From Sphyrna mokarran (taxonomy: Eukaryota), in the NCBI GenBank assembly GCA_024679065.1, contig JAGIQG010000006.1, positions 8,246,001 through 8,310,000 on the forward strand: 64,000 bases of DNA, in the 5' to 3' direction. The first letter of the stretch is position 1; each line of letters opens with the position of its first letter. Below are positions 1,971 to 61,466 of the stretch, in pieces. Position numbers and translations under genes: made by a program. The notes under the pieces were generated by a model. That model was not told the DNA's origin. It searched no databases and saw only the letters and a program-made list of their open reading frames with translations.

Positions 1971-2473
1971 TGACAGTACACTGAGGAGATTATCACTGGT
2001 TTTAGTTATTTCTGCAGGATGAGGCGCTGTCTGCGCAAGAGCTTCCTGTCAAGGCTGACACTGAGATAAACAGAGGCCTTTCCCATTACCCTCTCACCAC
2101 TGTTTCTATTCATAACATCTGGTGATAAATAAGGGTTTTAATGATTCTTTCTATGATAATAATGTCCAAGAAAAAGGAACAAAATGCCCAGACAATTTTA
2201 AAATTGAATTATGTTTATTTTCTGGTCAGCAATATCCAAGGAGGCAAACTGTTAGTTCCTGGGAATTATATAAACAAGGAAATTTGTTACAGTAAGTCTA
2301 ACAAACATCAAAGTGCATTTAGATAGCACCTTTCATCTGGGACAACATCCCAAGGCACTTTGCCAGTGGGTTACCGAACACAGGTTGACATCAGGCTGCA
2401 TAAAGAGAGTATGAGGTCAGTTGCCCAAACTTTGGTCAAAGAGGCAGCTTTTTCCAAATGACTTAAAGGAAGC

Positions 2474-2631
2474 AGGGAGCAGGGAGGCAGGGAGGCACAG
2501 AGGCACAGAGGCAGGGAGGCACAGAGGCAGGGAGGCACAGAGGCAGGGAGGCACAGAGGTAGGGAGGCAGGGAGGCAGGGAGGCACAGAGGCACAGAGGC
2601 AGGGAGGCAGGGAGGCAGGGAGGCAGGGAGG
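2474..2631 (+). repeat. 8-bp tandem repeat (GGCAGGGA / GGCACAGA)n
   Basis: About 19 direct units visible. Confidence 0.95.
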
Positions 2632-2669
2632 TGTAGGAGAGAATTCCAGAACCCAAGATCTTGTCAACT

Positions 2670-5680: not shown

Positions 5681-6309
5681 AAAATTCAGTTATCGAGTCT
5701 GGAATTAGCCTCATTGTTGTTAACAGTAAAACTAACATCACTGGTTGTTAAAAACCCACCTAGTTCATTAATGTTCTTTTAGAGAAGGAAATCTGCTGTC
5801 CTTAGCCGGTCTGGCCTACATGTTACTCCAGAGAAACAGCAATGAAGGATGGGCAACAAATGCTGGTGTTATCAGTGATGGTGCATCCTATGAATGAATA
5901 AAGCAAGGGAGACTTAAGAGAGGAAAATCCAGAGTTTAGAGACAGTCAGCTGGAGACGCAGACACTAATGTTAAAGCAAAGGCAGTGGGAGGTTATATTT
6001 AACAGGCTACAGGAATAAGGGGCAGAATTGGACACTCTCCCAGAATTTCCCACAGGAACCTGGCTCCCAAACCCAAACCCAATCCCACAGTCTGCAGGCA
6101 GGGCCTCAGGATGGGAGACCTGATCATTCACCCATTAAGCTTCACGGGAATGACCTCCCAACATTTGTCCAAGGAGCTCCTCAACACAACACAGTCACTG
6201 ACCAAACTATTCCCCACTCCAGGGATTTCTGCACCAATCACTGTGGCCTATAGCCCTCAGCCATCCTTAACTTTAATTAGGCCTTAGCTGTGGGCCCGAC
6301 TTGGCAAGT

Positions 6310-9300
6310 CCCCATGTGTTTTAATGCGAGGAGTGTGACTGGCAAAACAGATGAACTGAAGGCAATAATGTTCGAGAGGAAGTTAAAAGTGGTGGCGGTG
6401 ACTGAGACGTGGCTAAAGGAAGGGCAGGACTGGCAATTGAATATTCCGGGGTATAAGTGCTTTAGGCATGATAGAGGTGGTTTGAGGAGAGGAGGGGGAG
6501 TGGCGTTATTAGTTAAGGATCACATCATAGCAGTGCAGAAGGAAGGTAGTGTGGCTGAGTTTGGAATTGAGTCGCTATGGGTGGAGTTGAGGAATAGGAA
6601 GGGAGAGGTTACTATGTTGGGTGTGTACTACAGACCGCCCAAAAGTCCACGTGCCATGGAAGAAGGGATATGTAAGGAAATTTTAGATAAGTGTAGGAAG
6701 AATAGGGTAGTTGTAATGGGAGATTTCAATTTCCCTGGGGTAGATCGGAAGGTGCCAAGAGTGGAAGGTGCGGACGGGGAGGAATTTGTACAGTGTGTTT
6801 TAGAAGGGTCCTTGGAGCAGTATGTGGATAGCCCGACTAGAGAGGGGGCTATACTGGATCTGGTTCTGGGGAATGAGCCAGGGCAGGTGGTTGACGTTGT
6901 AGTAGGACAGCATGTGTCTAATAGTGACCACAACTCTGTCTGCTTTAGGGTATTAATGGAAAAAGATGAAGCCTGCCCTAAGGGGAGGGTGTTAAACTTG
7001 GGGGGAGGGCTAGATATAGCCAGATTAGGCAGGATCTTAAGGATACCGACTGGGATAAGCTGTTCGAGGGTAGGTCGACGCTGCACATGTGGGAATCTTT
7101 CAAGAGAAAACTAAAATTTTTGCAGGATAGACACGCGCCGGTAAGGAGGAAGGATGGGAAGGGTAGGATTAGAGAACCGTGAGTTACTAGGGATGTTGAG
7201 GACTTGGTCAAGAAGAAGCAGGAGGCGTAGGTTAGATCCAGGCAATTGGGGACAGAGGCAGCGCTGGAAAAATATAGAGAGTGTAGACGGGATCTTAAAA
7301 GGGGTGTCAGAAAAGCAAAAAGGGGCCACAAAATGGCTTTGGCAGGTAGGATTAAGGAAAATCCTAAGGCATTTTACTCCTATGTAAGGAGCAAAAGGAT
7401 GGTTAGAGGGAAGATTGGACCTCTCAGGGACAGAGGAGGGGATCTATGCTTAGAGCCTGAGGGGATGGGGGAGATCCTGAATGAATACTTTGTGTCAGTA
7501 TTCACGCGAGAGAGGGGCCTGATGTCTGATGCTGGCTTTGAGGATTTTGAGGACCCGTTAAAGGAAATAATCATTACAAGGGACGAAGTGTTGGGGCTTT
7601 TAGGCAACATAAAGACTTATAAAGCTCCGGGGCCTGCTAAGGGAGGTGAGAGATGACATTGCTGGGCCTCTGACGCAAATCTTTGTCTCTTCTTTGGACA
7701 CAGGTGAGGTCCCAGAGGACTGGAGGATTGCAAATGTAGTACCGTCGTTTAAAAAAGGGTCAAAGGGATAACCCAGGGAACTATAGGCCGGTGAGCTTGA
7801 CTTCAGTTATAGGTAAGCTAATGGAGAGGATCCTCAGGGACAGGATGTATGAGCATCTGGAGCGCTGAGATCTGATCAGGGATACGCAGCATGGCTTCGT
7901 TAAGGGGAGGTCGTGCCTTACGAACCTAGTGGAATTTTTTGAAGAGGTGACAAAAACGGTTGATGAAGGACAAGCCGTTGATGTCGTCTACATGGATTTC
8001 AGTAAGGCATCTGACAAGGTTCCCCATGGTAGGCTGATAAAAAAGGTGAAGGCGCATGGGATACAGGGCCAGGTATGTAGATGGGTTGAGAACTGGCTTG
8101 GGAGGAGAAGACAGCGGGTAGTAGTGGAAGGCTCCTTTTCCAACTGGAGGTCAGTCACTAGTGGTGTGCCACAGGGCTCAGTACTAGGACTTCTTCTATT
8201 TGTGGTTTATATAAATGACTTGGAAGAGGGGGTAGGTGGTGTGATCAGCAAATTTGCTGATGACACTAAGATGCTTGGATTGGCGGGGACTGAGGAGCAG
8301 TGACAGGCAATACAACAGGACATAGACAGGCTGGTAGACTGGGCAGATAGATGGCAAATGGAATTTAATCCGGATAAATGCGAGGTGATGCATTTTGGCC
8401 AGAATAATGTAGAGGGGAGTTATAGGATAAAAAGTAAAACTATCCGGAGTATAGAGACGCAGAGAGACCTGGGGGTGCAGGTTCACAAGTTTCTGAAGGT
8501 GTCAGTACAGGTGGAGAATGTGATAAAGAAAGCGTATGGTATGTTAGCCTTCATAGGAAGGGGTATAGAATACAAGAGTAGGAGTCTGATGTTGCAGGTG
8601 TATAGAACGTTGGTTAGGCCTCACTTGGAGTACTGCGTCCAGTTCTGGTCGCTGTACTACAGGGAGGATGTGGAGGCCCTGGAGACAGTGCAGAGGAGAT
8701 TTACCAGGATGCTGCCTGGTATGGAAGGGCTGTCTTACGAGGAAAGGTTGAACGCACTGGGGTTGTTTTCCGTTGAAAGACGTCGGCTGAGAGGGGATCT
8801 ATTAGAGGTATATAAGATTATGAGGGCTATAGATAGAGTAAATGGTGGTAAGCTTTTTCCACCATTAGATTCGGATAGAACGAGGGGTCACGGCCTTAGG
8901 GTGAGGGGGGCTAGGTATAAGACTAATATTAGAGGGCATTTTTTCACACAAAGGGTAGTGGGGGTGTGGAATGCACTACCGAGTAAGGTGGTGGGAGCAG
9001 GCACGCTAGGGTTGTTTAAGGGTCTCTTGGACAGCCACATGAGCAGTCTGCAGATAGAGGGATATAGTAGGACTGTCTAAATATCTTATTTGTTTCCACA
9101 GGCTATTCGGTCCACCTTGTTGACCAACAAGGCGCATGCATTCGGCAGGTCGTGCGAGGGCTGCTCTTGGATGTTACTTCAGGAGTGGCCTAGTGCTTCA
9201 TGTCGGTAGTGTATGCTTAAACTGGACCATCAGATGGGCAACATGACAGCTCAGAGACTATCGCTGTTGCTGTGCAGACACATGGATTTGGGCCTGTGTC

Positions 9301-9512
9301 TGCGGGAGTTTGCGCGTTCTCCCCGTGGTCGCATGGGTTTTCTCCGGGTGCTCCGGTTTCCTCCCACATCCCAAAAATGTGCTCTTAAGCTGATTGGGTA
9401 ACAAATTGTCCCTATATTGGTCTCTATATGTCATTAAGACGTTAGGATGGCGGCGCGGGCTCGTTGGGCCGAAGGGCCTGTTTCCCGTGCTGTGTTGTTC
9501 TTTGTTCTTTGT
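6310..9512 (+). mobile_element. Young CR1 LINE ORF2 (APE endonuclease + RT, frameshifted) with extended 3' module (structured domain + captured V-SINE) and (GTTCTTT)n tail
   Basis: ORFs 6290-7114 (NARS..VTETW..GDFN..SDH), 7246-7656, 7929-8303 (GVPQGS..FADD) and 8358-9080; module at 9090-9512. Confidence 0.93.
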
Positions 9513-9869
9513 TTGCTTTCCCATCAGCCTCAGAAACTTACCCAATCAAGCCCTCTGATTGGTCAGGCAGCTTCAGGACTCCACCCACCACCCCTGATTG
9601 GACAGTGGGCCAATTAGGAGGCTGTCCCCTGGTAAACTCACCGAGCTCAGGACCCTCCGGGGAACCTTTCGAGCTGAAATCCAAGCGTCGAATTCCTTGT
9701 CAAATTCCATCCATTATCTCTCTGTCTCTGCAGACACTGCCTTATTAGCTGCATACTCCCACCATTTTCAGTTCTTATTTCAGATTTCACGCATTATTTT
9801 GCTTCTCTAAATAACGTTTCAAATACAATGAAAGGCATTGTTCTTTTTTCCCTTTTGTTTCTTAGTAAA

Positions 9870-12800: not shown

Positions 12801-15089
12801 GTTACAAAGGGGCATGGATAAGCTGCAGAACTGGGCTGAGAGATGGAAAATGGAGTTTAATGTGGTAAAGTGTGAAGTGATTCACTTTGGAAGGAGTAAC
12901 AGGAATACAGGGTACTAGGCTAATGGTAAGCTACTTAGTAGTGTGGATGAGCAGAGAGATCTCGGTGTACATGTGCATAGATCCCTGAAAGTTGGCACCC
13001 AGGTTGATAAGGTTGTTCAGAAGGCATACGGTGTGTTAGGTTTCATTGGTAGAGGGATTGAATTTCAAAGAACAAAGAACAAAGAGCAACACAGCATGGG
13101 AAACAGGCCCTTCGGCCCAACGAGCACACGCCGCCGTCCGAACGTCTTGATGACATATCCTTGACTTTAGGCTATGCCTATTGTTGAAGATTCCCATATA
13201 GGGACCAATATAGGGACAATTTGTTACCCAATCAGCCTAAGAGCACATTTTTGGGATGTGGGAGGAAACCGGAGCACCCGGAGAAAACCCACGCAACCAC
13301 GGGAGAACGCGCAAACTCCCGCAGACACAGGCCCAAATCCATGTGTCTGCACAGCAACAGCGATAGTCTCTGAGCTGTCATGTTGCCCATCAGATGGTCC
13401 AGTTTAAGCATACACTGACGACGTGAAGCACTAGGCAACTCCTGAAGCAACCTCCAAGAGCAGCTCTCGCACGACATGCCGCATGCATGCCCCTTGTTGG
13501 TCAACAAGGTGGACCGAATTGCCTGCGGAAACAAATAAGACTTAATTAATCATGCTAAAAAAAAACTAAGACATTCCCGAGACGAAACTAAAAGATAGTC
13601 TACTACTATTTGGTCCTCCCGATATTCAAACAGTCCTGCTATATCCCTCTATCTGCAGACCGCTCATGTGGCTGTCCAAGAGACCCTTAAACAACCCTAG
13701 CATGCCTGCTCCCACCACCTTACTTGGCAGTGCATTCCACACCCCCACTACCCTTCGTGTGAAAAAATGCCCTCTAATATTCGTCTTATACATAGCCCCC
13801 CTCACCCTGAGCCCGTGACCCCTCGTTCTATCCATTTCTAATGGTGGAAAAAGCTTAACACCATTTACTCTATCTATACCCCTCATAATCTTATATACTT
13901 CTAAAAGATCCCCTCTCAGCCGACGTCTTTCAAGGGAAAACAACCCCAGTGTTTTCAATCTTTCCTCGTAAGACAGCCCTTCCATACCAGGCAGCATCCT
14001 GGTAAATCTCCTCTGCACTCTCTCCAGGGCCTCTACATCCTTCCTGTAGTACGGCGACCAGAACTGGATGCAGTACTCCAGATGAGGCCTAACCAACATT
14101 CTATACACCTGCAACATCAGACTCCTACTCTTGTATTCTATACCCCTTCCTATGAAGGCTAACATACCATACGCTTTTTTTATCACATTCTCCACCTGTA
14201 CTGACACCTTCAGAGACTTGTGAACTTGCACCCCCAGGTCTCTCTGCATCTCTATACTCCGGATAGGTTTACCTTTTATCCTATAACTCCCCTCTACATT
14301 ATTCCGGCCAAAATGTATCACCTCGCATTTATCCGGATTAAATTCCATTTGCCATCTATCTGCCCAATCTACCAGCCTATCTATGTCATGTTCTATTGCC
14401 AGGCACTGCTCCTCAGTACCCGCCAATCCAATCATCTTAGTGTCATCAGCAAATTTGCTGATCACACCACCTACCCCCTCTTCCAAGTCATTTATATACA
14501 CCACAATTTCGGAGCCATGAGGTCATGTTGCAGCTGTACAAAACTCTGGTGTGGTCATACTTGGAGTATTGCATACAGTTCTGGTCACCACATTATAGAA
14601 AGGATGTGGAAGTATTGGAAAGGGTGCATAGAAGTTTACCAGGATGTTGCCTGGTATGGTGGGTAGGTCTTATGAGGAAAGATTGAGGGACTTGGGGTTG
14701 TTTTCATTAGAGAGAAGAAGATTAACAAGTGATTTAATAGAGGCATACAAGATGATCAGAGGATTAGATAGGGTGGATAGTTAGAGCCTTTTTCCTCGGA
14801 TGGTGATGGCTAACACGAGGAGACATAGCTTTAAATTGAGGGAGTGATAGACATAGGACACTTATGAGAGGTAGGCTCTTTACTCAGAGGGTAGTAAGGG
14901 TATGAAGTGCCCTGCCTGCAGCAGTTGGACTCGTCAACATTAAGGGCATTTAAATGGTCATTGGATAAACATATGGATGATATTGGAATAGAGTAGATTA
15001 GATGGGTTTTAGATTGGTTTCACAGATCGGTGCAACATAAGGACCAAGGGGCCTGCACTGCGCCGTAATGTTCTACGTTCTATGTTCTC
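9870..15089 (+). mobile_element. Near full-length older CR1 LINE: ORF1 remnant (Cys/Zn-finger-like start, SGNH/GDSL esterase-like domain) and ORF2, interrupted by a nested CR1
   Basis: SCGMFEV..SCRKC at 9884-10066; decayed DSVVRG..VCCLPG..HIGTND at ~10290-10465; EN at 10880-11510; RT at 12072-13060, resuming at 14511; tail at ~15050-15089. Confidence 0.85.
13067..14504 (-). mobile_element. Young CR1 (same subfamily as 6310-9512) nested in the older CR1, with 3' module
   Basis: 292-aa RT C-terminal ORF 13626-14504 nearly identical to 8200-9080; module at 13067-13540; TSD AATTTC at 13061-13066 and 14505-14510. Confidence 0.93.
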
Positions 15090-18039: not shown

Positions 18040-18920
18040 GGGTGACACGGTGATTAGCACGGCTGCCTCACAGCGCCAGGGACCCGGGTTCAATTCCAGC
18101 TACGGGTCACTGTCTGAGTGGAGTCTGCACGTTCTAATACAGCTAAACGGGAAAGAGTGCAGAAAAAATTTACCCGGATGATACTGGGACTTGACGATTT
18201 GAGTTATGAGAGGCTGGATAGATTGCGACTTTTTTCTCTACAGTGCACACAGCTGAGGGGTGATCTTAAATAAGTCTATAAAACAATGAGAGGCACAGAT
18301 CAGCCAGATAGTCAATATCTTCTTCCAAATGTAGGGGAGTCTAAAACTAGAGGGCATAGGTTTAAGATGAGAGGGAAGAGATATAAAAGTGTCCAGAGGG
18401 ACAATTTGTTCACACAGAGTGTGATGAGTGTCTGGAACAAGCTGCCAGAGGTAGTAATAGAGGTGGATACAATTTTGTTTTTTAAAAATTAGATAGTTAT
18501 ATGGATATGGTGGGTATAGAGGGATATGGGCCAAATGCAGGCAACTGGAATTAGCTGTGGGTTTTTAAAAAACAGGTGGCATGAACAAAGAACAAAGAAC
18601 AACATAGCACGGGAAACAGGCCCTTCGGCCCAACGAGCCCGCGCCGCCGTCCTAATGTCTTAATGACCGAAGGGCCTGTTTCCATGCTGTAAACCTCTAT
18701 GACTCCATTCTCCCTGTGTCTCTGTGGGTTTCCTCTGGACACTCCGGCTCCCTCCCACATTCCAAAGATGTGTGGGTTAGGTTGATTGGCTGTGTTAAAT
18801 CGATCCTAGTGTTGGGAGATTACTGGGATAAATGTGTAGGGTTACGGGAATTGGTGGGATTGTGATCGGTGCTGGCTTGATGGGCCGAATAGCCTCTTCC
18901 CGCACTGTAGGGATTCTAGG
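18040..18920 (+). mobile_element. HE1-like SINE split by a CR1 3' fragment (~18136-18705), which itself holds an inverted 80-nt tail of the module-bearing CR1 (~18583-18667)
   Basis: SINE head ends ..GCACGTTCT at ~18135 and resumes TTCTCCCTGTG at ~18708; the inner tail matches 9431-9512 in reverse. Confidence 0.75.
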
Positions 18921-29440: not shown

Positions 29441-30697
29441 CAACAGGCCCTTCGGCCCAACGAGCCCGTGCCACCATCTCGATGTTCCCACTTCTACCCA
29501 TGATCCCTGTCTATGTTTATAGATCTATGAATTGGAACCAAATTTGAGCCAGTTTAGGGAGAATTTGTTCTGCTAATCAGCCTAAGAGCACATCTTTGGG
29601 ATGTGGGAGGAAACCGGAGCACCCGGAGAAAACCCACGCAAGCACGGGGAGAATGTGCAAACTCCCACAGACACAGGCCCAAATCCATGTATCTGCACAG
29701 CACAGCGATAGTCACTGATCTGTTGTGTTGCCCATCAAATGGTCCAGGTCAAGCGTTTACTAACGACGTGAAGCACTAGGATACTCTCGAAAAATCCAAG
29801 AGCAGCCCTCTCACGACCCATCGCATGTATGTTCCTCATTAGACAACAAGTCGCCCTTCATCGACTGTTTTCATCACCTCCTCAAAACATTCTACCAGAT
29901 TCGTAAGGCACGACCTCCCCATAGCAAATCCATGCTGCTTATCCCTAATCAGATCGCAATGCTCTAAGTGCCTATACATCCTATCCCTAAGAATCCCCTC
30001 CAACAGCTTTCCTACCACTGATGCCAAATTCACTGGCCTATAATTCTCAGGGTTATCCCTACTACCCTTTTTAAACAACGGTACAACATTAACTATTCTC
30101 CAGTCCTCTGGGACCTCACCTGTGTCCAAAGAAGAGACAAAGATTTGTGTCAGAGGCCCAGCAATTTCACCTCACACCTCCGTAAGCAGCCTGGGATAAA
30201 TGCCATCAGGCCCAGGAGATTTATCAGGTTTAATACTACCTAGAAGCTCTAACACTTCCTCCCTCGGTATGGATATTTCCCTCAACTGGTCCACAGCTCC
30301 CTCAGAGACAGGACCGGTCAACAAGCCCCTCTCCTTCGTGAATACCGACACAAAGTATTCATTCAGGATCTCCCCCACTCCCTCGGGCTCTAAGCACAGT
30401 TCCCCTTCTCTGTCCCTAAGAGGTCCAATTTTTCCTCTAGCACCCTTTTATTCCTAACGTAGGAATAAAAAGTCTTTGGATTTTCTTTAATCCTATCTGC
30501 CAAAACCATTTCATGTCCCCTTTCTGCCCTTCTAACTCCCTGTTTGAGCTCCCTCCTACTCTCTCTATATTCCTCCAACGCTCTCTCCGTTCCCAGCTGC
30601 TTTGACCTATCATACGCCTCTCTTTTCTTCCTCACCAAATCCTCAATATTCCTGGTAATCCACGGCTCTCTAATCCTACCTTTCCCATCCTTCCTCA
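29441..30697 (-). mobile_element. Internally deleted CR1 carrying a divergent version of the 3' module
   Basis: ORF2 pieces 30390-30698, 30172-30378 and 29839-30129 join directly to the module (29441-29850). Confidence 0.85.
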
Positions 30698-32796: not shown

Positions 32797-33039
32797 GTAA
32801 GAATTTAGCAACACCAATTTTAAATCCAACCGATTTATTTGATAGTAAAATTACGAGCTTTCGACACTCTGTGTCTTTGTCAGGCAAATGCAGTGTTACA
32901 CTGCATTTGCCTGACAAAGACACAGAGTGTCGAAAGCTCGCAATTTTACTATCAAATAAATCGGTTGGATTTAAAATTGGTGTTGCTAAATTCTTACTGA
33001 GTTCTTACTACCTCAGTCCAACTCCGGCATCTCTACATC
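32797..33039. mobile_element. Penelope-like (pLTR-derived) fold-back insertion: 101-bp inverted arms plus a ~40-nt tail
   Basis: Arms 32796-32896 and 32898-32998 (1 mismatch, 1-nt loop); 12-bp TSD AGAAAATTCTGA at 32785-32796 and 33040-33051; contains AATAAA and a hammerhead motif. Confidence 0.8.
32907..32943 (+). ncRNA. Minimal type I hammerhead ribozyme motif (G8A variant); mirror copy at 32851-32887 on the minus strand
   Basis: UUGC-CUGACAA-A-GACAC-AGA-GUGUC-GAAA-GC-UC-GCAA: stem I, core, stem II, GAAA, palindromic mini stem III and UH; the core reads CUGACAA instead of CUGANGA. Confidence 0.7.
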
Positions 33040-36297: not shown

Positions 36298-38176
36298 GTA
36301 TGATTCCACCATCTGACTTTTGCTGTTAGAGTTTTGATGTGTTTTCTTTAAGCGTCAGAATAATGAAATTTTATGTCTACATCATGTTTAATTTGCAAAC
36401 AGTTTTTCAGTCGTGATCACAGAAATAATATCCTTCCGTGAAGGTCAGCATTTGTTGCACATCCCTATTTTTTTTATTCATTTGTGGGACGGGTCAGTAT
36501 TTATTGCACATCCCTGATTGCCCTTGAAGCTGAGTGTGTCGCTCGGCCATTTCAGAGGGCAGTTGAGACTCAGCCAAATTGCTGTGTCTCTGGAGTCACA
36601 TGTAAGCCAGATCGAGTAAGGATGGCAGATTTCCTTCCCTAAAGGACATTAATGAATCAAATGGGTTTTTCCAACAATGATTTCATGGTCAGTCAATTTT
36701 TAATTCCAGATATTTTTTATTGAATTCAAATCCCATCATCTGTCGTGGCGGGATTCGAACCCATTAGCTGAGTTCCTGATTAATAATCCAGTGATAATAC
36801 CACTAGGCCATCACCTCCCTCAGTTGAGTGTCTTGCTGTTCAGAGGGCAGCTAATATCAGCCAGAGGAATGTAACTCTAGAGTCATATATAGGCCAGACC
36901 AGGTAAAGATGGCAGATTTCCTTCCCTGAAGGACATTGGTGAATGAGGTGAGATGATGTTAGTTGTCACAGTCACCATTACTAAAACTAGCTTCACACTA
37001 CACAGTTACTACTTCAATTTAAATTCACCATCTGCTGTGGTGGGATTGGAGCCCATGTCCCCAGGCATTAGGCTGGCTCTCCGGGTTACTGACATTATCC
37101 CACTAGTCACTGTCTTACCCCAAAGAGGCCTTCACAATCCTCTGGTTCATGTAGGAATACAGTTCCCTGCTTTCACCAATCAGCCGGTACAATGGGATAT
37201 CTGAAAGAGAAGATGATTCAATAAGATCATTCAAAAGGAGATTGGATAAATACTTGAAGAGGAAAATGAGAGATCCAGGAGGAAGGTGTAAGTGGAAGTG
37301 GAATTCTAATTGCACAATCTTTCAAAAAGCTAGCACATGCACAAATAGGCTGAATGGTCACAATTCATTGAACCCTGTTGGATGAATCATTGCATAAGAA
37401 CACAAGAGATAGGAACAGAAGATGGCCATTCAGCCCCTCAAGCCTGCTGCCCTACACAATAAGATCAAGTGTGCATTCTTAGCTCCATTTTCCTGCCTCG
37501 CCCCCATTACTCTCAACTTCCTTTGCGATCAGATATCTGTCTAACTCAGCCCTGAATCTATTCAATAATCCAGCCCCCACTGCTGTCTGAGGAACAGAAT
37601 TCCAAACACTAACAACCCTCAGAGAAGACATTTTTCCTCATCCCCACCTTAAATGGGAGATTCCTTATTTTTGGTTTTGGGTTCTTGAACGAGAGGAAGC
37701 ATCGTCCCAGCTTCCATTCTGTCAAACCCGCTCACAATCGTATATTTCAGTAAGTTAACCAATGGCTCTCCAGAGCTTTCCTCAGGGGGTGCTGGGGTGA
37801 GGGGAGGAGATTTAAACCTGCCAATGACAAAGCACACCAGCAGCCCTATAAAAGGGTCCCTGATTGGAGCAGGCAGCTTTGCAGTTACTGGGAAAGCTCC
37901 CGGTAGAGTGATGGTGACACGAGCCTCTAATTAACCAACATTCCTAATGCCCACGGGCTGGGAACATTCAATCCTAAAATTCTCCCCCTCATCGTTGAAT
38001 CCCCTTCACTGAATCACAGAATAGTTACAGTGCAGAAGGAGACCATTTGGCCCATCATGTCTACACTGGCCTTCAAATGAACAACTCACTTAATGCCATA
38101 TCCCCACTTTTTTCTCATAAGCCTGTAAATTCTCTCTCTTCAGATAACACTCCTATTTCCTTTCAAAAGCTTTGAT

Positions 38177-38766
38177 TCAATCTATCTCCACCACACTCTT
38201 AGTAGTACATTCTAGGTTCTAATCTCTCACTGTATGAATCTGTCTCCACCACACTCTCAGACAGTACATTCCAGATCCTGACCATTCGCTGTGTGAATCT
38301 GTCTCCACCACACTCTCAGACAGTGCATTCCAGATCCTAACCACTCGCTGTGTGAATCTGTCTCTACCACACTCTCAGACAGTACATTCCAAATCCTAAC
38401 CACTCGCTGTGTGAATCTGTCTCCACCACACTCTCAGACAGTGCATTCCAGATCCTAACCACTCGCTGTGTGAATCTGTCTCCACCACACTCTCAGACAG
38501 TACATTCCAGATCCTAACCACTCACTGTGTGAATCTATCTCCACCGCACTCTCAGACAGTGCATTCCAGATCCTAACCACTCGCTGTGTGACTCTGTCTC
38601 CACCACACTCTCAGACAGCGCATTCCAGATCCTAACCACTCGCTGTGTGAATCTGTCTCCACCACACTCTCAGACAGTGCATTCCAGATCCTAACCACTC
38701 GCTGTGTGAATCTGTCTCCACCACACTCTCAGACAGTACGTTCCAGATCCTAATCACTCACTGTGG
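38177..38766 (+). repeat. 59-bp minisatellite (~10 units) derived from a CR1 segment
   Basis: Unit GAATCTGTCTCCACCACACTCTCAGACAGTGCATTCCAGATCCTAACCACTCGCTGTGT starts at 38236, 38295, 38354 ... 38708. Confidence 0.95.
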
Positions 38767-39399
38767 AGATTCTTTTTCTTCATTTTGTTCTTACTTCTTT
38801 TATGAATTACCTTAAGTCTGTATCCTTTCATTCTTGATTCTTTCTTGAGCAGCAATACTTTGTCTCCATTTACTCTGTCCACATAACCTGGAATTAAAAA
38901 TTAATGATGACCGTGGAACCGTTACCAACTGTTGTAAAAATCCATCTGGATCACTAATGTCGTTTAGGGAAGGAAATCTTCCATCCTTATCCGGTCTGAC
39001 TTACATGTGACTCCAGGGATGGGCAATAAATTCTGACCTAGCCATGAACAAATAAAAAAAAAGGCTCCTTTATGATTTTGAACACCTCGATTAAATCTTC
39101 TCTCAGCTGAGTCTTCTCCAAACAAATAGTCTTAATTTCTCCAATCTGTCTTTGTCACTGAAGTTTCCCAAGCCTGTAACCATTCTCATGAATTCTCTTA
39201 ATATCACCCACTCTCTATCTCTGCAGCCTCCCTAAGTTTCGCAATACCCCCCACGACCTCTGTTCCTCTGTCCCTGATTTTGATCCCACACTCGCACTCC
39301 CCACTATTGAGGACAAGCTTTAGCTGTCTCAGACTCCACACTATGAAATCCCCCGTTAAGCCCATTGCCCTACTCCTTTTAAGCTGCTTCTTCGACCCA

Positions 39400-49800: not shown

Positions 49801-50306
49801 ACGTGCTAGTTAGGTGCATCAGCCCAATGCTACATTCTCCCTCAGTGTATCCGAACACAGAGTGGGGCAACAAGAGGATTTTCACAGTAATTTCATTGTA
49901 GTGTTAATGCAAGTCTACTTATGACTAATAAATAAACTTTTAAAAAAACATAATCCAGATTTAAATACTTGCATCAGAGATTCAAAAGACTGGGGTGGGA
50001 ATTCTCCAGCCTTTCATAATCCCACTGCCAGGGAATTTGGCACTCCACCGAATCCCTGTTCACAACAGCGGGACTGGAGAATCCCAGCTGCAGGCAAAGT
50101 CGGAAAATCCAATTCTGGATTTTACCCCAGTCGGGAAACAAAAGTGAGAGTTTTACCCTGTCCCACATTGGCTATGCATTTATTAGGCTTTGCCAGTGCT
50201 CCCAGGCACATTAAGCAGATAACTAAACTGCAAAGTCCCCAGATACAGAGTCAACAATTAATATGGAGTGAATTAACTATCATTCAGTGGCTGGTTTAAT
50301 TTTTAG

Positions 50307-50447
50307 TAAGAAGTCTGACAACACCAGGTTTAAGTCCAGTCGATTTATTTGATAATAAATTCACAAATAAATCGGTTGGACTTAAACCTGGTGTTGTCAG
50401 ACTTCTTACCATGTTTACCCCAGTCAAATGCCAGCATCTCTATATCA
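50307..50447. mobile_element. Second Penelope-type fold-back insertion (46-bp arms)
   Basis: Arms 50306-50351 and 50364-50409 (2 mismatches); 15-bp TSD TGGTTTAATTTTTAG at 50292-50306 and 50448-50462; tail homologous to that of 32797-33039. Confidence 0.8.
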
Positions 50448-57862: not shown

Positions 57863-59589
57863 GTAAACCTTGAGATGTTGAGAAAATTTCCTGCTGCACT
57901 TGATCCCAGTAATTTCACCAGGGTTTCTCCCATTGCTAACCCCTGACTCTCACCACCCCCTGACACCCCCTCACTAATGACCCCAGCACTGGAGTGAACA
58001 GGGGCACAATGAGAAGCCCAATTCACAGTCATTGTTCTAAAGGATCCATAACTCTTTGTTTTGCCAGTTGCAGTGAGCTGAGAAGTTTAACACTGAGTTA
58101 GAGAAAGAATCTGAGTTAATGGCTATCTTTTAGTTGCTATTCCTTACCTGTCTCTTCTTGGTAAGGGTTTTGAATGTTAACATTACTGTACACAGACTCT
58201 TCTTTAGGTTTCTGTGGCCCTGGAAAGGATACAATCGTTGTTATCTGCAAACCTTTTATACAACTAAATAGCAAAGCAATAAATCCAACAATAACTCGCA
58301 TTTACCTAGCACCCAAAACACAGTGAAATGTCCCAAGGCACTTCTCAGGAGAGCTAATCAAAAACAGTTTGACACTGAGACAAGAGTAGAGATAGTAGAG
58401 ATAAGGGGGCTACTTTGGGGGCATTCAAATGGTCGGTGGATAGGCATATGGATGATATTGGAATAGTTTAGGTTAGAGGGTCCACTGGCCGGCGCAACAT
58501 CGAGGGCCGAAGGGCCTGTACTGCGCTGTAATGTTCTATATTCTATGTTCTAAGGACACAAGGGTTAGCCGTCAGAGCAGGCCATTCGGCCCATCAAACC
58601 CACTCTGCCATTTCATAAGATCATGGAAATACAGAAAACAGAAGTAGGAGGTAGGTCATTTGGCCTTTCCAGCCTGGTCTGCAATTCATTATCATCATGG
58701 CTGATTATCCAACTCAATAACCTGATATGCCCTTTCTCCCTTTAGTCACAAGAGCTATATCTAACTATTTCCTGGAATCACATGTTCTGGCCTCAACTAC
58801 ACTCTATGGTAGCGAATTCACCGCCCACTGGGTGAAGGAATTTCTCCTCACCTCAGTTCTAAAAGGTTTACCCCTTATCCTCAAACTATGAACCCTAGTT
58901 CTGGACCATCGGGAACATTCTTTCTGAATCTGCCTCATCAAAACTTGTTAGAATTTTATAAGTTTCGATGAGATCCCCTTTCACACTTCTAACCTCCAGT
59001 GAATATAATCCTAACTGACTTAGTCTCTCCTCTTATAAGGGACCTGCCATCCCAGGAATCAGCCTGGTAAACCTTCACTCCCTCTACAGCAAGGGCATCC
59101 TTCCTCAGATAAGGAGACTGATTGATTGGATTGTGAGTTTAACTCCACTTTCCGACCTGTTTCCCAAAACCCTCGAATTCCTGTGAGTTTTGTGAGTCTT
59201 GAATCTTGAAATGACTCGAAATCTACCAGATCTGCCATCAAACTCCTCACAGTGAGCAAGCCAGCAAACTTTAAAGCCCAATTCGTTACACATACAGAGT
59301 ACTTGGCCAGTCATCATTCATTGAAAATGGTGTCTGATTGTGTCATGATAATTGACACTCACGCGTACCGTGCTCACAAATGCCGCTGCGCTGTCTGACT
59401 CCCTGCTGGCTGAGAGGCCTGCTCTGGAGGAGTGAAGGAGGTAAAGCTACGAGCCCAGTGCTGCTGCTGAGGTCAACTTGTTGAATAATGCTGCTGAGTG
59501 TCTGATTCCTCAACTGGGTGTCCCGACTTTAACAATGTGGGAAAATGTCCCACAGCTTAGACTGGATTCATCTGGGGGGAGGGGAGAGG

Positions 59590-60165
59590 AAGGCATCAAT
59601 GGGGCATGCTTCCTCACTCCAGACCTCCTGGGAGGAGCACATTTCCCCCTCACCGCTGACCTCCTGGGGGGGGGGGGGCCTCAATGGGCACATTCCCCTC
59701 ACCACTGACCTCCTGGGGAGACCTCAATGGGCACATTCCCCTCACCACTGACCTCCTGGGGAGACCTCAATGGGCACATTCCCCTCACCACTGACCTCCT
59801 GGGGAGACCTCAATGGGCACATCCCCCCACCACTGACCTCCGGGGTGGGGGGGGGCCTCAATGAGCACATCGCCCCCCACCACTGACCTCCTGGGGGGGG
59901 GTCTTAATGGGCACATCCCCTCACCGCTGACCTTGTGGGGGGGGCCTCAATGGGCACATCCCCTCACCGCTGACCTTGTGGGGGGGCCTCAATGGCACAC
60001 CCCTCACGCTGACCTTGGGGGGGGCCTCAATGAGCACATCCCCTCACCGCTGACCTTGTGGGGGGGGGCCTCAATGGGCACATCCCCCCCACCACTGATC
60101 TCCTGGGGGGGCTCAGTGGGCACATTCCCCCATGCCTGACCTCCTTGGGGGGGCCTCAATGGCCT
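59590..60165 (+). repeat. ~43-bp GC-rich minisatellite with a variable G-run (~13 units)
   Basis: Unit CCTCAATGGGCACATTCCCCTCACCACTGACCTCCTGGGG(G/AGA)n. Confidence 0.93.
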
Positions 60166-61042
60166 CTGTTCCTCCAGCGGGGTCAGTCACCTGTTTTGAT
60201 TTGATTTATTATTGTCACATGTGTTAATATATAGTGAAAAGGGGAGAGCTTTTGCTAACCCAGCTGGAGTGAACTCCTGGTGGAGGAGGGGTGGGGCGGG
60301 GAGGTTGATAGTGGGCCCAGTGATTTCAGTCCCGGGTCCATTAACCAGATGCAAATTCAATTATAAATATTGAAATCAGACCCACGTCGCTGATGCTGCT
60401 ACAAATTTTCATCAATTTTCTGACATGCCACTGATCTTTGTGAATTATACATTTTTTCTTTCAGTTGATACTATCTTTAACTTTCTTAGAACGAAGAACA
60501 AAGAAGATTACAGCACAGGAACAGGCCCTTCAGCCCTCCAAACCATTGACCTGACTTAACTAAAACCCCCTACCCTTCCAGGGACCATATCCCTCTACTC
60601 CCATCCATGTCAAGATGCTCCTTAAAATACACTACTGGATCTGTTTCCACTACCATCCCCAGCAGCGAGTTCTAAGCACCCTCCACCCTCTGTGTAAAAT
60701 ACTTGCCTCATACTTTTCCTTTAAATCTTGCCCCTTACACCTTAAACCTGTGCCTTCTAGTAATTGATTTTTCCACTCTGGGAAAAAGCTTCTATCCAGT
60801 TAGCCCCGGATGGTGTGTCCTCCTCCTAGAGTCTTTTTAGCGGAATGTAACTTTACTCAGTGTTATAAAATATCTCCTTAAATGTCTGCATCTACATCTG
60901 TAACTGATCTTCCCTTGAAGCTAATTTCCCAGTTTGCGTTAGTTAGCTGCATCTCACAACCTTGCAATTATGTTTATTCAACTCTAGCACTCAATCTGAT
61001 TTTTTCTCTCTCAAACTGTTTAATTTGTTTAAATACTTTAAT

Positions 61043-61466
61043 TGTTTCCACCGGCTATTCGGTCCACCTTGTTGACCAACAAGGTGCATGCATTCGGCAG
61101 GTCGTGCGAAGGCTGCTCCTGGAGGTTACTTCAGGAGTGGCCTTGTGCTTCACGTCGTTAGTGTATGCTTAAACTGGACCATCAGATGGGCAACATGACA
61201 GCTCAGAGGCTATCGCTGTTGCTGTGCAGACACATGGATTTGGGCCTGTGTCTGCGGGAGTTTGCGCGTTCTCCCCGTGGTTGCGTGGGTTTTCTCCGGG
61301 TGCTCCGGTTTCCTCCCACATCCCAAAAATGTGCTCTTAGGCTGATTGGGTAACAAATTGCCCCTATATTGGTCTCTATATGTCATTAAGACGTTAGGAT
61401 GGCGGCACGGGCTCGTTGGGCCGAAGGGCCTGTTTCCCGTGCTGTGTTGTTCTTTGTTCTTTGTTC
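61043..61466 (+). mobile_element. Copy of the CR1 3' module (structured domain + captured V-SINE + tail) with no adjacent ORF2
   Basis: Highly similar to 9090-9512; the upstream ~240 nt is unrelated to the other copies. Confidence 0.88.

Follow-up and report, generated by a model that had tools for sequence, protein, structure and literature searches.

Organization of the host element

The 64-kb window (the whole stretch of DNA that was analyzed) contains the broken, 5′-truncated ORF2 of a CR1 LINE, which terminates with a TAA codon at 9078–9080 and is followed by the 120-nt domain described here (Table 1). Among named animal sequences, the nearest relatives of ORF2 come from sharks and rays (52–65%), with birds at 38–51%; judged by its sequence, the host element is an elasmobranch (shark or ray) CR1 family. 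The domain lies between an ORF2 of the CR1 endonuclease/reverse transcriptase type and a CR1 tail with a microsatellite end, i.e. within the 3′ UTR of the LINE, which is 435–560 nt long in this family. This abundant family occurs in two species or more, and the remaining CR1 ends of the window do not have the domain.

We compared four copies from the window (named 9k, 13k, 29k and 61k after their positions), together with read alleles from the read sets. The copy at 13396–13515 (−) had been overlooked in the earlier note. The 9k and 13k copies are contiguous with the same ORF2 end and 95% identical, the domain beginning 28 and 110 nt, respectively, behind the stop codon. A deletion joins the 29k copy to an internal piece of ORF2, with its junction at 9116 (9k coordinates) and loss of the 5′ strand of the closing helix P1. 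In two copies the spacers on both sides have been deleted, and the domain has been kept.

At its end the spacer carries a conserved CCACAGG-like motif resembling a 3′ splice site (AG at 9100–9101), and alternative spacers occur among the loose read ends listed. The sense strand of ORF2 is rich in G+T (258 G, 107 C), and the domain shows only a mild skew (37 G, 28 C, 33 T, 22 A). Translated read-through or a downstream ORF was rejected, the 55-codon frame in the SINE head being frameshifted in two of the four copies; a search (a weak test) for longer protein relatives of a reading frame across the domain found none.

Table 1. Features of the domain-bearing CR1 element and copies of the domain in the window
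Feature	Position	Strand	Remarks
CR1 ORF2, broken and 5′-truncated	6281..9080	+	ORFs; endonuclease, reverse transcriptase, C-terminal domain; Pfam PF03372/PF14529, PF00078
U-rich spacer	9081..9108	+	28 nt in 9k copy, 110 nt in 13k copy; read-depth trough
Domain, 9k copy (predicted fold)	9109..9228	+	
P1, closing helix, 5′ strand	9109..9114	+	pairs with 9223–9228; no variant among rows listed
P2, short hairpin	9115..9132	+	7 bp, GACC loop; two changes to G-U in 29k copy
Long arm	9134..9216	+	P3 9134–9147/9201–9216 (2-nt bulge), P4, P5; asymmetric internal loops
P4, within long arm	9152–9155/9193–9196	+	4 bp
P5, distal hairpin of long arm	9158–9191	+	14 bp; strands 9158–9171/9178–9191
Junction linker, single-stranded	9217..9222	+	6 nt; followed by P1 3′ strand 9223–9228
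tRNA-derived V-SINE head, A-box region	9237..9271	+	hairpin fold; alignment with 6 free SINE copies
New 9-bp hairpin across deleted B box	9274..9303	+	alignment with 6 free SINEs
V-domain-like SINE body	9304..9400	+	common to 15 other SINE-like places in window
CR1 tail hairpin and terminal microsatellite	9452..9515	+	tail type also found in CR1 families lacking the domain
Domain, 13k copy	13396..13515	−	886 nt of same ORF2 upstream, longer spacers, 6-bp target-site duplication
Domain, 29k copy	29741..29848	−	diverged subfamily, about 78–81% identity
Domain, 61k copy	61061..61180	+	element 5′-truncated in spacer; 7-bp target-site duplication

Predicted fold of the domain

Folding predicts that 9109–9228 forms, as sense-strand RNA, a structure composed of a closing helix, a short hairpin, one 83-nt arm and a 6-nt linker. 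The earlier note had described a multi-way junction of about 120 nt, and the fold, as a prediction, is upheld. The complementarity of GGUCCA (9109–9114) and UGGACC (9223–9228) is confirmed in the sequence, and the long hairpin of 13–15 bp proposed there proves to have 14 bp. The short hairpin had been placed correctly, but the 2-nt loop assigned to it cannot close, and P2 has instead a 4-nt loop. Two stems regarded as weaker candidates are in fact strong (pair probabilities mostly >0.9); they stack with the long hairpin into a single arm, so that the junction is three-way.

When compared with shuffled controls, the three intact copies gave z-scores of −5.46, −6.46 and −4.94 (0/300 shuffles as good in each case), and the advantage is confined to the sense strand (antisense z of +0.26, −1.67 and −0.32 for the same copies). 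The longer segment 9109–9303 scored −4.19 (0/200 shuffles), and the 29k copy was no better than shuffles (−0.38). The score depends on register: when windows were set on a fixed 30-nt grid, the 61k copy was the only one among the top 45 of 4260, and in the same scan four other non-palindromic windows reached z ≤ −5. An ORF2 segment (8161–8280) folds equally well (z −5.4). P1 is the weak part of the structure, with pair probabilities of 0.24–0.8 in full-UTR folds of three copies, and 11 of the 45 predicted pairs are G-U. A candidate tertiary contact between the loop GACC (9122–9125) and the internal loop GGUC (9148–9151) was found by eye; it is broken at one of its four positions in two of the four copies. 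An outer helix, 9097–9104/9291–9298, was rejected (probability 0.001).

Divergence and selection

Of the changes relative to the 9k copy, the 29k copy keeps a pair at 11/18, the 13k copy at 2/5 and the 61k copy at 2/4. The three pairing-preserving differences quoted in the earlier note are as stated there; they had, however, been picked from changes that keep a pair, and the pair-breaking changes of the 29k copy (7/18, with 4 of the 8 pairs of lower P3 broken) had been omitted. Covariation over the four copies amounts to two double changes and is not above that of shuffled data (178/500 score as high).

Comparison with the 29k copy revealed that the domain has diverged less than the fourfold-degenerate sites of ORF2 (24/108 versus 23/60, p 0.03; the latter count takes in one segment with a frame slip), and twice as fast as the SINE head plus V-domain (24/108 versus 19/171, p 0.017). 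Paired sites are hardly more conserved than unpaired ones (18/82 versus 7/25 changed).

The domain was also detected in a second species, represented by read set X5. Its summed depth there is 0.10–0.24 M at the flanks of the junction and 0.01–0.02 M in the distal arm. Variants were taken from 40 of 73 rows, and the loose ends from a listing that leaves out 416 others. Among the rows listed, 17 fall inside the domain, none of them in P1 or P2, while the unpaired junction base 9133 occurs as all four letters. At paired sites, 9 of the 12 listed changes leave pairing with the majority partner intact (p 0.015); measured against the partners of the 9k copy itself, 7 of 13 listed variants do so (p 0.38), and for listed transitions alone the figure is 7/9 (p 0.28). 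X5 and the 29k copy share several changes and are thus not independent. Inspection by eye of the loose ends listed indicated that subfamilies with a different spacer, P2 or distal arm retain the P1 strands, and that one diverged subfamily retains the 6-nt linker (loose end before 9223).

These sequence comparisons provide modest signs of selection on the domain. The earlier note had called the RNA selected, to which the fourfold comparison, the junction in the second species and the pairs gained by the SINE head lend some weight; selection on the domain itself is not proven, because covariation is not significant and paired sites are hardly more conserved.

The captured SINE and the CR1 tail

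The segment 9237–9400 aligns with the abundant tRNA-head SINE of the window. V-SINEs (HE1) consist of a head derived from a tRNA plus an 80-bp V domain, and we provisionally take the segment to be such an element, its body 9304–9400 presumably being the V domain; sequence identity of the SINE part to HE1 itself is likewise our assumption. The naming fits the descriptions in PMC3747384 and PMC4824008. The hairpin 9274–9303, said in the earlier note to span the site of the lost B box, was confirmed by alignment: its pairing is intact in 36/36 cells of the four module copies, against 19/44 in the six free SINEs. The SINE head of the module also carries one double change from G-C to A-U. The tail hairpin lies about 220 nt downstream of the domain.

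The free SINE copies of the window do not carry the domain, and there was no tRNA call. An independent SINE with a composite head was considered and rejected: the B box is deleted, the tRNA call is negative and read set X1 has no excess of copies that begin with the domain. By summed depth, a rough measure, X1 reaches 1.0–1.6 M over the domain and 1.7–2.0 M over the ORF2 end, and so gives no sign of surplus domain-first copies. On the 3′ side of the domain the X1 depth increases.

Known RNA classes and search for relatives

Rfam 15 gave no match in the window at the gathering threshold, in agreement with the description of the RNA as unassigned. E-value scans of three copies yielded 4, 2 and 5 sub-threshold matches (best E 0.066 and 0.07), none common to the three; the match to KCNQ1OT1_1 (E 0.066), found in one copy only, was attributed to chance. 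No CTE/RTE-type motif was recognized in the domain, nor was there an Rfam match of that kind.

The hammerhead core consists of the strands CUGANGA and GAAA around a three-way junction; CUGANGA is absent from the sense strand of all four copies, with one antisense match in one of them. In the HDV-like descriptor a 3-bp P3 encloses the loop L3, after which come the 3′ strand of P1 and the G of P1.1. An L3-like heptamer is present at 9197–9203 in three of the four copies, with P3 unpaired in all four under the strict descriptor; if one inserted base is allowed P3 does pair, but no P1/P1.1 arrangement is common to the copies. These motif tests bear out the statement of the earlier note that neither core is recognizable. 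Crude motif tests found no twister-type motif on the sense strand, and a pistol-type hexamer only at the ORF2 stop/spacer of two of the four copies. In the twister-sister-like (lantern) ribozyme, 6-nt and 5-nt internal-loop strands face each other (PMC11620745); none of the four copies has the 6-nt strand within the domain, and the 5-nt strand is matched in two. No motif test speaks in favor of the new ribozyme suggested in the earlier note.

Exact-motif searches matched 36 loci in viral contigs and one in genome contigs, all rejected as seed-length chance matches, and none in metagenome contigs. ORF2-based scans recovered eight loci in genome contigs, none in viral contigs and 52 in metagenome contigs, and neither the domain nor the SINE module was found in these 60 loci; a single covariance-model match among them (E 0.03, GC 0.71) was taken as chance. 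The phage collection gave no match. Descent from the reverse transcriptase coding sequence of the LINE itself, suggested by a colinear likeness seen by eye, was rejected (pairwise p 0.03–0.89), and profiles over 18 ORF2 tiles gave no consistent result. The searches made revealed no origin. In the literature covered, which excludes Repbase, Dfam and the founding papers on HE1/HER1 and V-SINEs, neither a description of the element nor a match to five sequence motifs was found, so that a consensus containing this UTR may have been deposited before; a supplement file of PMC13343379 contains none of four sequence motifs.

Possible roles of the domain

Our tentative reading, to which we would give somewhat less than an even chance, is that host proteins dock at the domain and thereby bring about export or protection of the unspliced LINE RNA. 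On that RNA it would fold as a three-way junction and bind host proteins, which would either carry the RNA out of the nucleus or shield it from decay; the junction core would make the specific contacts, leaving the distal arm free to turn over. The domain would act before reverse transcription, since the tail hairpin, of the kind recognized by LINE proteins, is present separately and is sufficient in sister families. Capture of the SINE would have extended the UTR to 435–560 nt, the Pol III promoter of the SINE being subsequently disabled and refolded, and the domain may have been kept because of this lengthening. In favor of a docking site we count the sense-only fold, the divergence below the fourfold rate, the greater depth of the junction flanks in X5, the lack of listed variants in P1 and P2, the survival of the domain where flanking spacers are deleted, and the refolded SINE head. 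Against it speak the covariation at shuffle level, a divergence twice that of the SINE part, the broken pairs of lower P3 in the 29k copy and the fact that other CR1 families transpose without the domain.

The main rival, which we consider rather unlikely, is a structured passenger derived from fold-back duplications or a captured piece and lacking a specific partner. It would persist because its self-contained fold compacts the long UTR and leaves the tail hairpin free, its G-U pairs stemming from the G+U bias of the CR1 sense strand. Such an origin agrees with the non-significant covariation, the near-equal conservation of paired and unpaired sites, the G+T richness of ORF2 together with its segments that fold as well, and the replacement of the distal arm in some subfamilies among the loose ends listed. 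It fits poorly with the persistence of both P1 strands and of the linker length while their neighbors change, with the retention of the domain in two species where flanking spacers are deleted, with a divergence below the fourfold rate, and with the mild base skew of the domain. Improbable in our view is a second site bound by the ORF2 or ORF1 protein of the element itself, by which the RNA would be held in cis after translation and priming at the tail aided: although the domain lies directly behind the ORF2 stop and is limited to one family, and ORF2 proteins of stringent LINEs bind the 3′ stem-loop of their own element (PMC4176376), the domain does not keep a fixed distance from the stop (28 and 110 nt), and a normal tail hairpin, common to families without the domain, is located 220 nt downstream.

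We regard as very improbable that the domain is a new self-cleaving ribozyme or exonuclease block which frees the downstream SINE-like module as a short RNA; it would then, with a similarly small chance, found a class of compact three-way-junction RNAs of its own, either catalytic or nuclease-blocking, present in very many copies in a vertebrate LINE that has also taken up and refolded a SINE, and releasing a SINE-like sub-genomic RNA from the 3′ end of that LINE. The conserved junction core with a variable distal arm, the possible GACC/GGUC contact, the rise of X1 depth 3′ of the domain and the ribozymes of other LINE clades (PMC5786205) would suit such an activity. However, no known core was met, the loop contact is broken at one position in half of the copies, the rise in depth is what ordinary 5′ truncation or diverged domains would give, and X1 depth reveals no excess of domain-first copies; moreover, known LINE ribozymes sit at 5′ ends, and cleavage at this site would separate ORF2 from the tail. 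Least probable of all appears a captured host exon, with the spacer ending in a working 3′ splice site, together with which the domain would have arrived and through which host or LINE transcripts would be spliced onto the module. A pyrimidine run and CAG-G precede the domain in two of the three window copies that keep the region, the loose ends listed show this signal in another spacer type as well, and there is a branch-point-like motif; yet the 61k copy lacks the AG, one subfamily among the loose ends listed lacks the pyrimidine run, no copy starts at 9102 (the 29k junction being at 9116), no longer protein containing this reading was found (a weak test), and U-rich spacers are common in other CR1 UTRs.

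Relation to known systems

The retrotransposon IAP and L1 offer the closest parallels to the proposed docking site. The RTE of IAP works via RBM15/NXF1, and an NXF1-binding element has been located in the L1 3′ UTR (PMC2674570 and a work cited therein). The L1 element, RTE-D of IAP and the retroviral CTE are likewise multi-helix RNAs behind the last ORF of an unspliced RNA and apart from the priming signal (PMC2674570). They share no sequence or Rfam likeness with the domain, whose export role is a prediction, and our literature search found no report of export elements of this type for CR1. The RSE of Rous sarcoma virus, which binds PTBP1, protects from UPF1-dependent decay, adjoins the stop codon and has pyrimidine-rich stretches (PMC4764554), is comparable in that the domain too lies directly behind a stop codon with a pyrimidine-rich stretch. 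The RSE is, however, 400 nt long, with up to eleven CU-rich clusters, and guards a 7-kb UTR (PMC4764554), whereas in the CR1 element the UTR measures about 0.5 kb and has a single short U-rich spacer.

Among composite SINE heads (5S rRNA, 7SL or snRNA plus a tRNA part), a structured unit of about 120 nt likewise lies directly 5′ of a tRNA-like region; the domain differs from them in having no Rfam match to any such RNA and no excess of domain-first copies, and its helix proportions, we assume, differ from those of 5S rRNA. Heads of 5S plus a partial tRNA are described among SINEs (PMC4824008). The HE1 V-SINE and HER1 LINE of sharks and rays (PMC3747384) resemble the part downstream of the domain in their tRNA head, V-type body and CR1 tail. 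In the present element, however, the SINE forms part of the LINE and has lost its B box, and the free SINEs of the window lack the domain.

In sharks and rays, 22–34% of the genome consists of CR1-group elements (PMC13343379). The RNA signal that the literature covered describes for LINEs of this type is a small tail hairpin. The 3′-tail stem-loops of ZfL2/CR1 and their SINEs are also family-specific structures of LINE 3′ UTRs (PMC4176376; PMC4824008); they are small terminal hairpins, whereas the domain is an additional 120-nt junction upstream of the element's own tail hairpin. A UTR that has grown into a chain of folded domains, including a promoter-less SINE, would show LINEs taking over RNA parts of the elements that parasitize them, contrary to the usual flow from LINE to SINE. 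If the domain is a passenger it is a curiosity; if it does export or stabilize RNA, it would represent a new vertebrate cis-element.

Genomic context of the structured domain

The window is repeat-rich animal DNA, in which the domain (a predicted 120-nt RNA fold) starts 28 nt 3′ of the TAA stop codon (9078-9080) that ends a disrupted ORF2 of CR1 type, in which endonuclease and reverse-transcriptase domains are present. Of 2992 protein relatives of this ORF2, 120 were listed; within that list, shark and ray proteins were the closest from named animals (52-65% identity), bird relatives showed 38-51%, two relatives labelled bacterial 63-64%, and several unnamed ones 66-89%. The host is presumed to be an elasmobranch. 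Six short contigs from bacterial assemblies of Fredinandcohnia, Chitinophaga, Nocardia and Streptomyces (L038-L043) encode vertebrate-type CR1 ORF2 ends, mostly with CR1 tails, and very likely represent contaminating DNA from animals.

Within the window the domain occurs in exactly four copies, as identified by BLAST, nhmmer and a covariance model; they are named here by position, with 9k as the reference. The ORF2 ends next to the 9k and 13k copies are 95% identical over 886 nt, and the contiguity of both copies with this same end indicates that the module (domain, captured SINE and tail) is the family's own 3′ UTR (435-561 nt) and not a chance insertion. The module was absent from all other CR1 ORF2 ends inspected in the set examined; these, where complete, have a short spacer followed by the tail. 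No relative of the domain outside these animals was detected among genome, viral and metagenome contigs or in a phage collection. Derivation from the element's own ORF2 was rejected after it did not pass a profile test.

Positions of the domain copies, predicted helices and other repeats of the window
Feature	Position	Strand	Remarks
Domain copy 9k	9109-9228	+	contiguous with ORF2 end
Domain copy 61k	61061-61180	+	7-bp target-site duplication
Domain copy 13k	13396-13515	-	contiguous with ORF2 end; 6-bp target-site duplication
Domain copy 29k	29741-29848	-	diverged subfamily; deletion joins copy to internal ORF2 piece
P1	9109-9114/9223-9228		predicted closing helix of junction
P2	9115-9132		predicted hairpin
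Long arm	9134-9216		P3, internal loops with 4-bp P4, distal hairpin P5 (predicted)
Tail-only copy of domain-bearing family	18584-18667	-	antisense inside another CR1 family's tail
Tandem array	38086-38883		59-bp unit, derived from CR1 ORF2 C-terminal coding sequence
Minisatellite	2449-2647		8-bp unit
Minisatellite	59587-60173		roughly 43-bp unit

Predicted fold

In the predicted structure of the domain, P1, P2, one unpaired base, the long arm and a 6-nt linker make up a three-way junction. Folding better than that of shuffled controls, as expected of the multi-helix RNA proposed in the earlier note, was found for the three intact copies (sense-strand z = -5.46, -6.46 and -4.94; 0/300 shuffles as good in each case). 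The antisense values were +0.26, -1.67 and -0.32, an asymmetry that arises because 11 of the 45 predicted pairs are G-U; the damaged 29k copy gave z = -0.38. Pair probabilities are near 1 for P2, P3 and P5, and those of P1 in whole-UTR folds are 0.66, 0.79 and 0.24.

The fold is unusual, yet not unique in the window. In a background scan, 120-nt windows were folded at 30-nt intervals on the two strands (4260 in all), with z-tests on the 45 best residuals. Two DNA palindromes came out on top, followed by the 61k copy. The 9k and 13k copies, both off register on that grid, were not among these 45, and z -5 or lower was also reached by the windows at 8161, 14371, 18601 and 1501. An ORF2 segment of the domain-bearing CR1 family, in the region that encodes the RT catalytic motif and its surroundings, folds as strongly as the domain (8150-8290, +, z -5.4; 14371-14490, -, z -6.7). 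Hairpins with z about -4 span the ORF2 end (8960-9100, +) and place its stop codon in a stem, which, judged by eye, is also possible in the 13k copy despite a differing spacer.

Signs of selection

The pairing-preserving changes between copies described in the earlier note were upheld in part. Of 18 changes in the 29k copy relative to 9k, 11 keep the pair (expected 8.0, p 0.034), as do 2/5 in 13k and 2/4 in 61k; covariation, however, is no higher than in shuffles, since the score of the four-copy alignment (93% of cells paired, two double changes) was reached by 178/500 of them.

Contigs from public sequencing runs, aligned on 8960-9310 at 80% likeness, yielded 18,870 records for X1, 4,176 for X5 (another organism), 435 for X3 and none for X20. 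Among the 40 listed of 73 variant rows, 17 variants lie inside the domain, P1 and P2 are free of them, and 7/13 paired-site variants keep the pair with the 9k partner (p 0.38); this becomes 9/12 (p 0.015) with 9206 set to the majority letter and that row dropped, and 7/9 (p 0.28) for transitions alone. All four letters occur at the unpaired junction base 9133.

In X5 the ORF2 end and SINE head had a summed depth of 0.5-0.7 M, the junction flanks 0.10 M (9116-9139) and 0.19-0.24 M (9200-9223), and 9140-9187 one of 0.01-0.02 M, which suggests that divergence is faster in the domain than in its neighbours and, within the domain, least at the junction flanks. By eye, among 18 listed loose ends (416 further), one subfamily has another spacer and P2 start with the P1 5′ strand kept, one has an altered 6-nt linker ahead of the 3′ strand of P1, and an X5 type carries a different short hairpin as its distal arm.

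When 9k is compared with 29k, 24/108 sites differ in the domain, compared with 19/171 in the SINE head and V body (p 0.017) and 23/60 at ORF2 fourfold sites (p 0.03), a count in which one ORF2 segment is frame-slipped and the 29k ORF2 piece and module may have separate histories. Differences affect 18/82 paired and 7/25 unpaired sites. The case for a constraint focused on the junction is modest, and its lines of evidence are partly non-independent; selection on the domain is likely but unproven.

The captured SINE

The segment 9237-9400 aligns with the abundant tRNA-head SINE of the window (15 other places), which we tentatively take to be HE1/V-SINE. A table in PMC3747384 agrees with this name. 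The SINE, whose B box is deleted, is refolded and not left to decay: hairpin 9274-9303 is paired in 36/36 cells of the four module copies versus 19/44 in six free SINEs, both of its strands having changed, and one G-C to A-U double change is seen in the head hairpin. This evidence is clearer than that for the domain; the four copies are related, and the refolding represents one evolutionary event. Template switching without selection could create hairpin 9274-9303.

Possible function

The structured domain in a LINE 3′ UTR is real and apparently undescribed: the literature searched contained no shark CR1 with a long structured 3′ UTR and captured V-SINE (a search that did not extend to Repbase, to Dfam or to the first descriptions of HE1/HER1). 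An element in the L1 3′ UTR reportedly binds NXF1. The IAP RTE recruits NXF1 via RBM15 (PMC2674570), and the RSE, which lies behind the gag stop, binds PTBP1 and blocks decay (PMC4764554). Like these precedents, the domain is a predicted folded element directly behind the last stop of an unspliced retroelement RNA. Given these precedents, we tentatively chose to regard it as a candidate host-protein docking element for RNA export or stability, of which the junction core would be the specific part and the distal arm replaceable.

The main alternative, a compact structured passenger, is less likely. The tail hairpin (9452-9490), a site bound by stringent LINE proteins according to PMC4176376, is present separately and of a type shared with CR1 families lacking the domain, which makes a role of the domain as priming signal improbable. 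That it offers the element's own proteins a second binding site is also improbable. Less credible still is a new ribozyme or nuclease block. As the earlier note had it, no hammerhead or HDV core was recognized in the domain; descriptor-based motif tests for hammerhead, HDV-like, twister and pistol cores were negative, as was one for a twister-sister-like core (motif from PMC11620745). An Rfam match, which the note named as a refuting result, did not appear: no family reached threshold in the window, and scans by E-value, run on three copies, gave only scattered weak matches. X1 depth, a rough summed measure, is 1.0-1.6 M in the domain and thus not above the 1.7-2.0 M of the ORF2 end; this speaks against an independent SINE and against cleavage at the domain's 5′ border. 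A captured exon with a splice acceptor is the least probable reading.

Directly 5′ of the domain, 9074-9102 (+) holds a branch-point-like motif, a pyrimidine run and CAG-G; a CCACAGG-like motif is common to several otherwise differing spacers and, in one subfamily, is followed by a donor-like GT. A weak match to Rfam KCNQ1OT1_1 (13410-13560, -; E 0.066), seen in one copy only, is probably due to chance, and would be of interest if that mammalian region is an old repeat. Two near-perfect DNA palindromes (32800-32994 and about 50306-50408, arms about 96 and 45 bp) share an arm motif, which suggests one small inverted-repeat element family.
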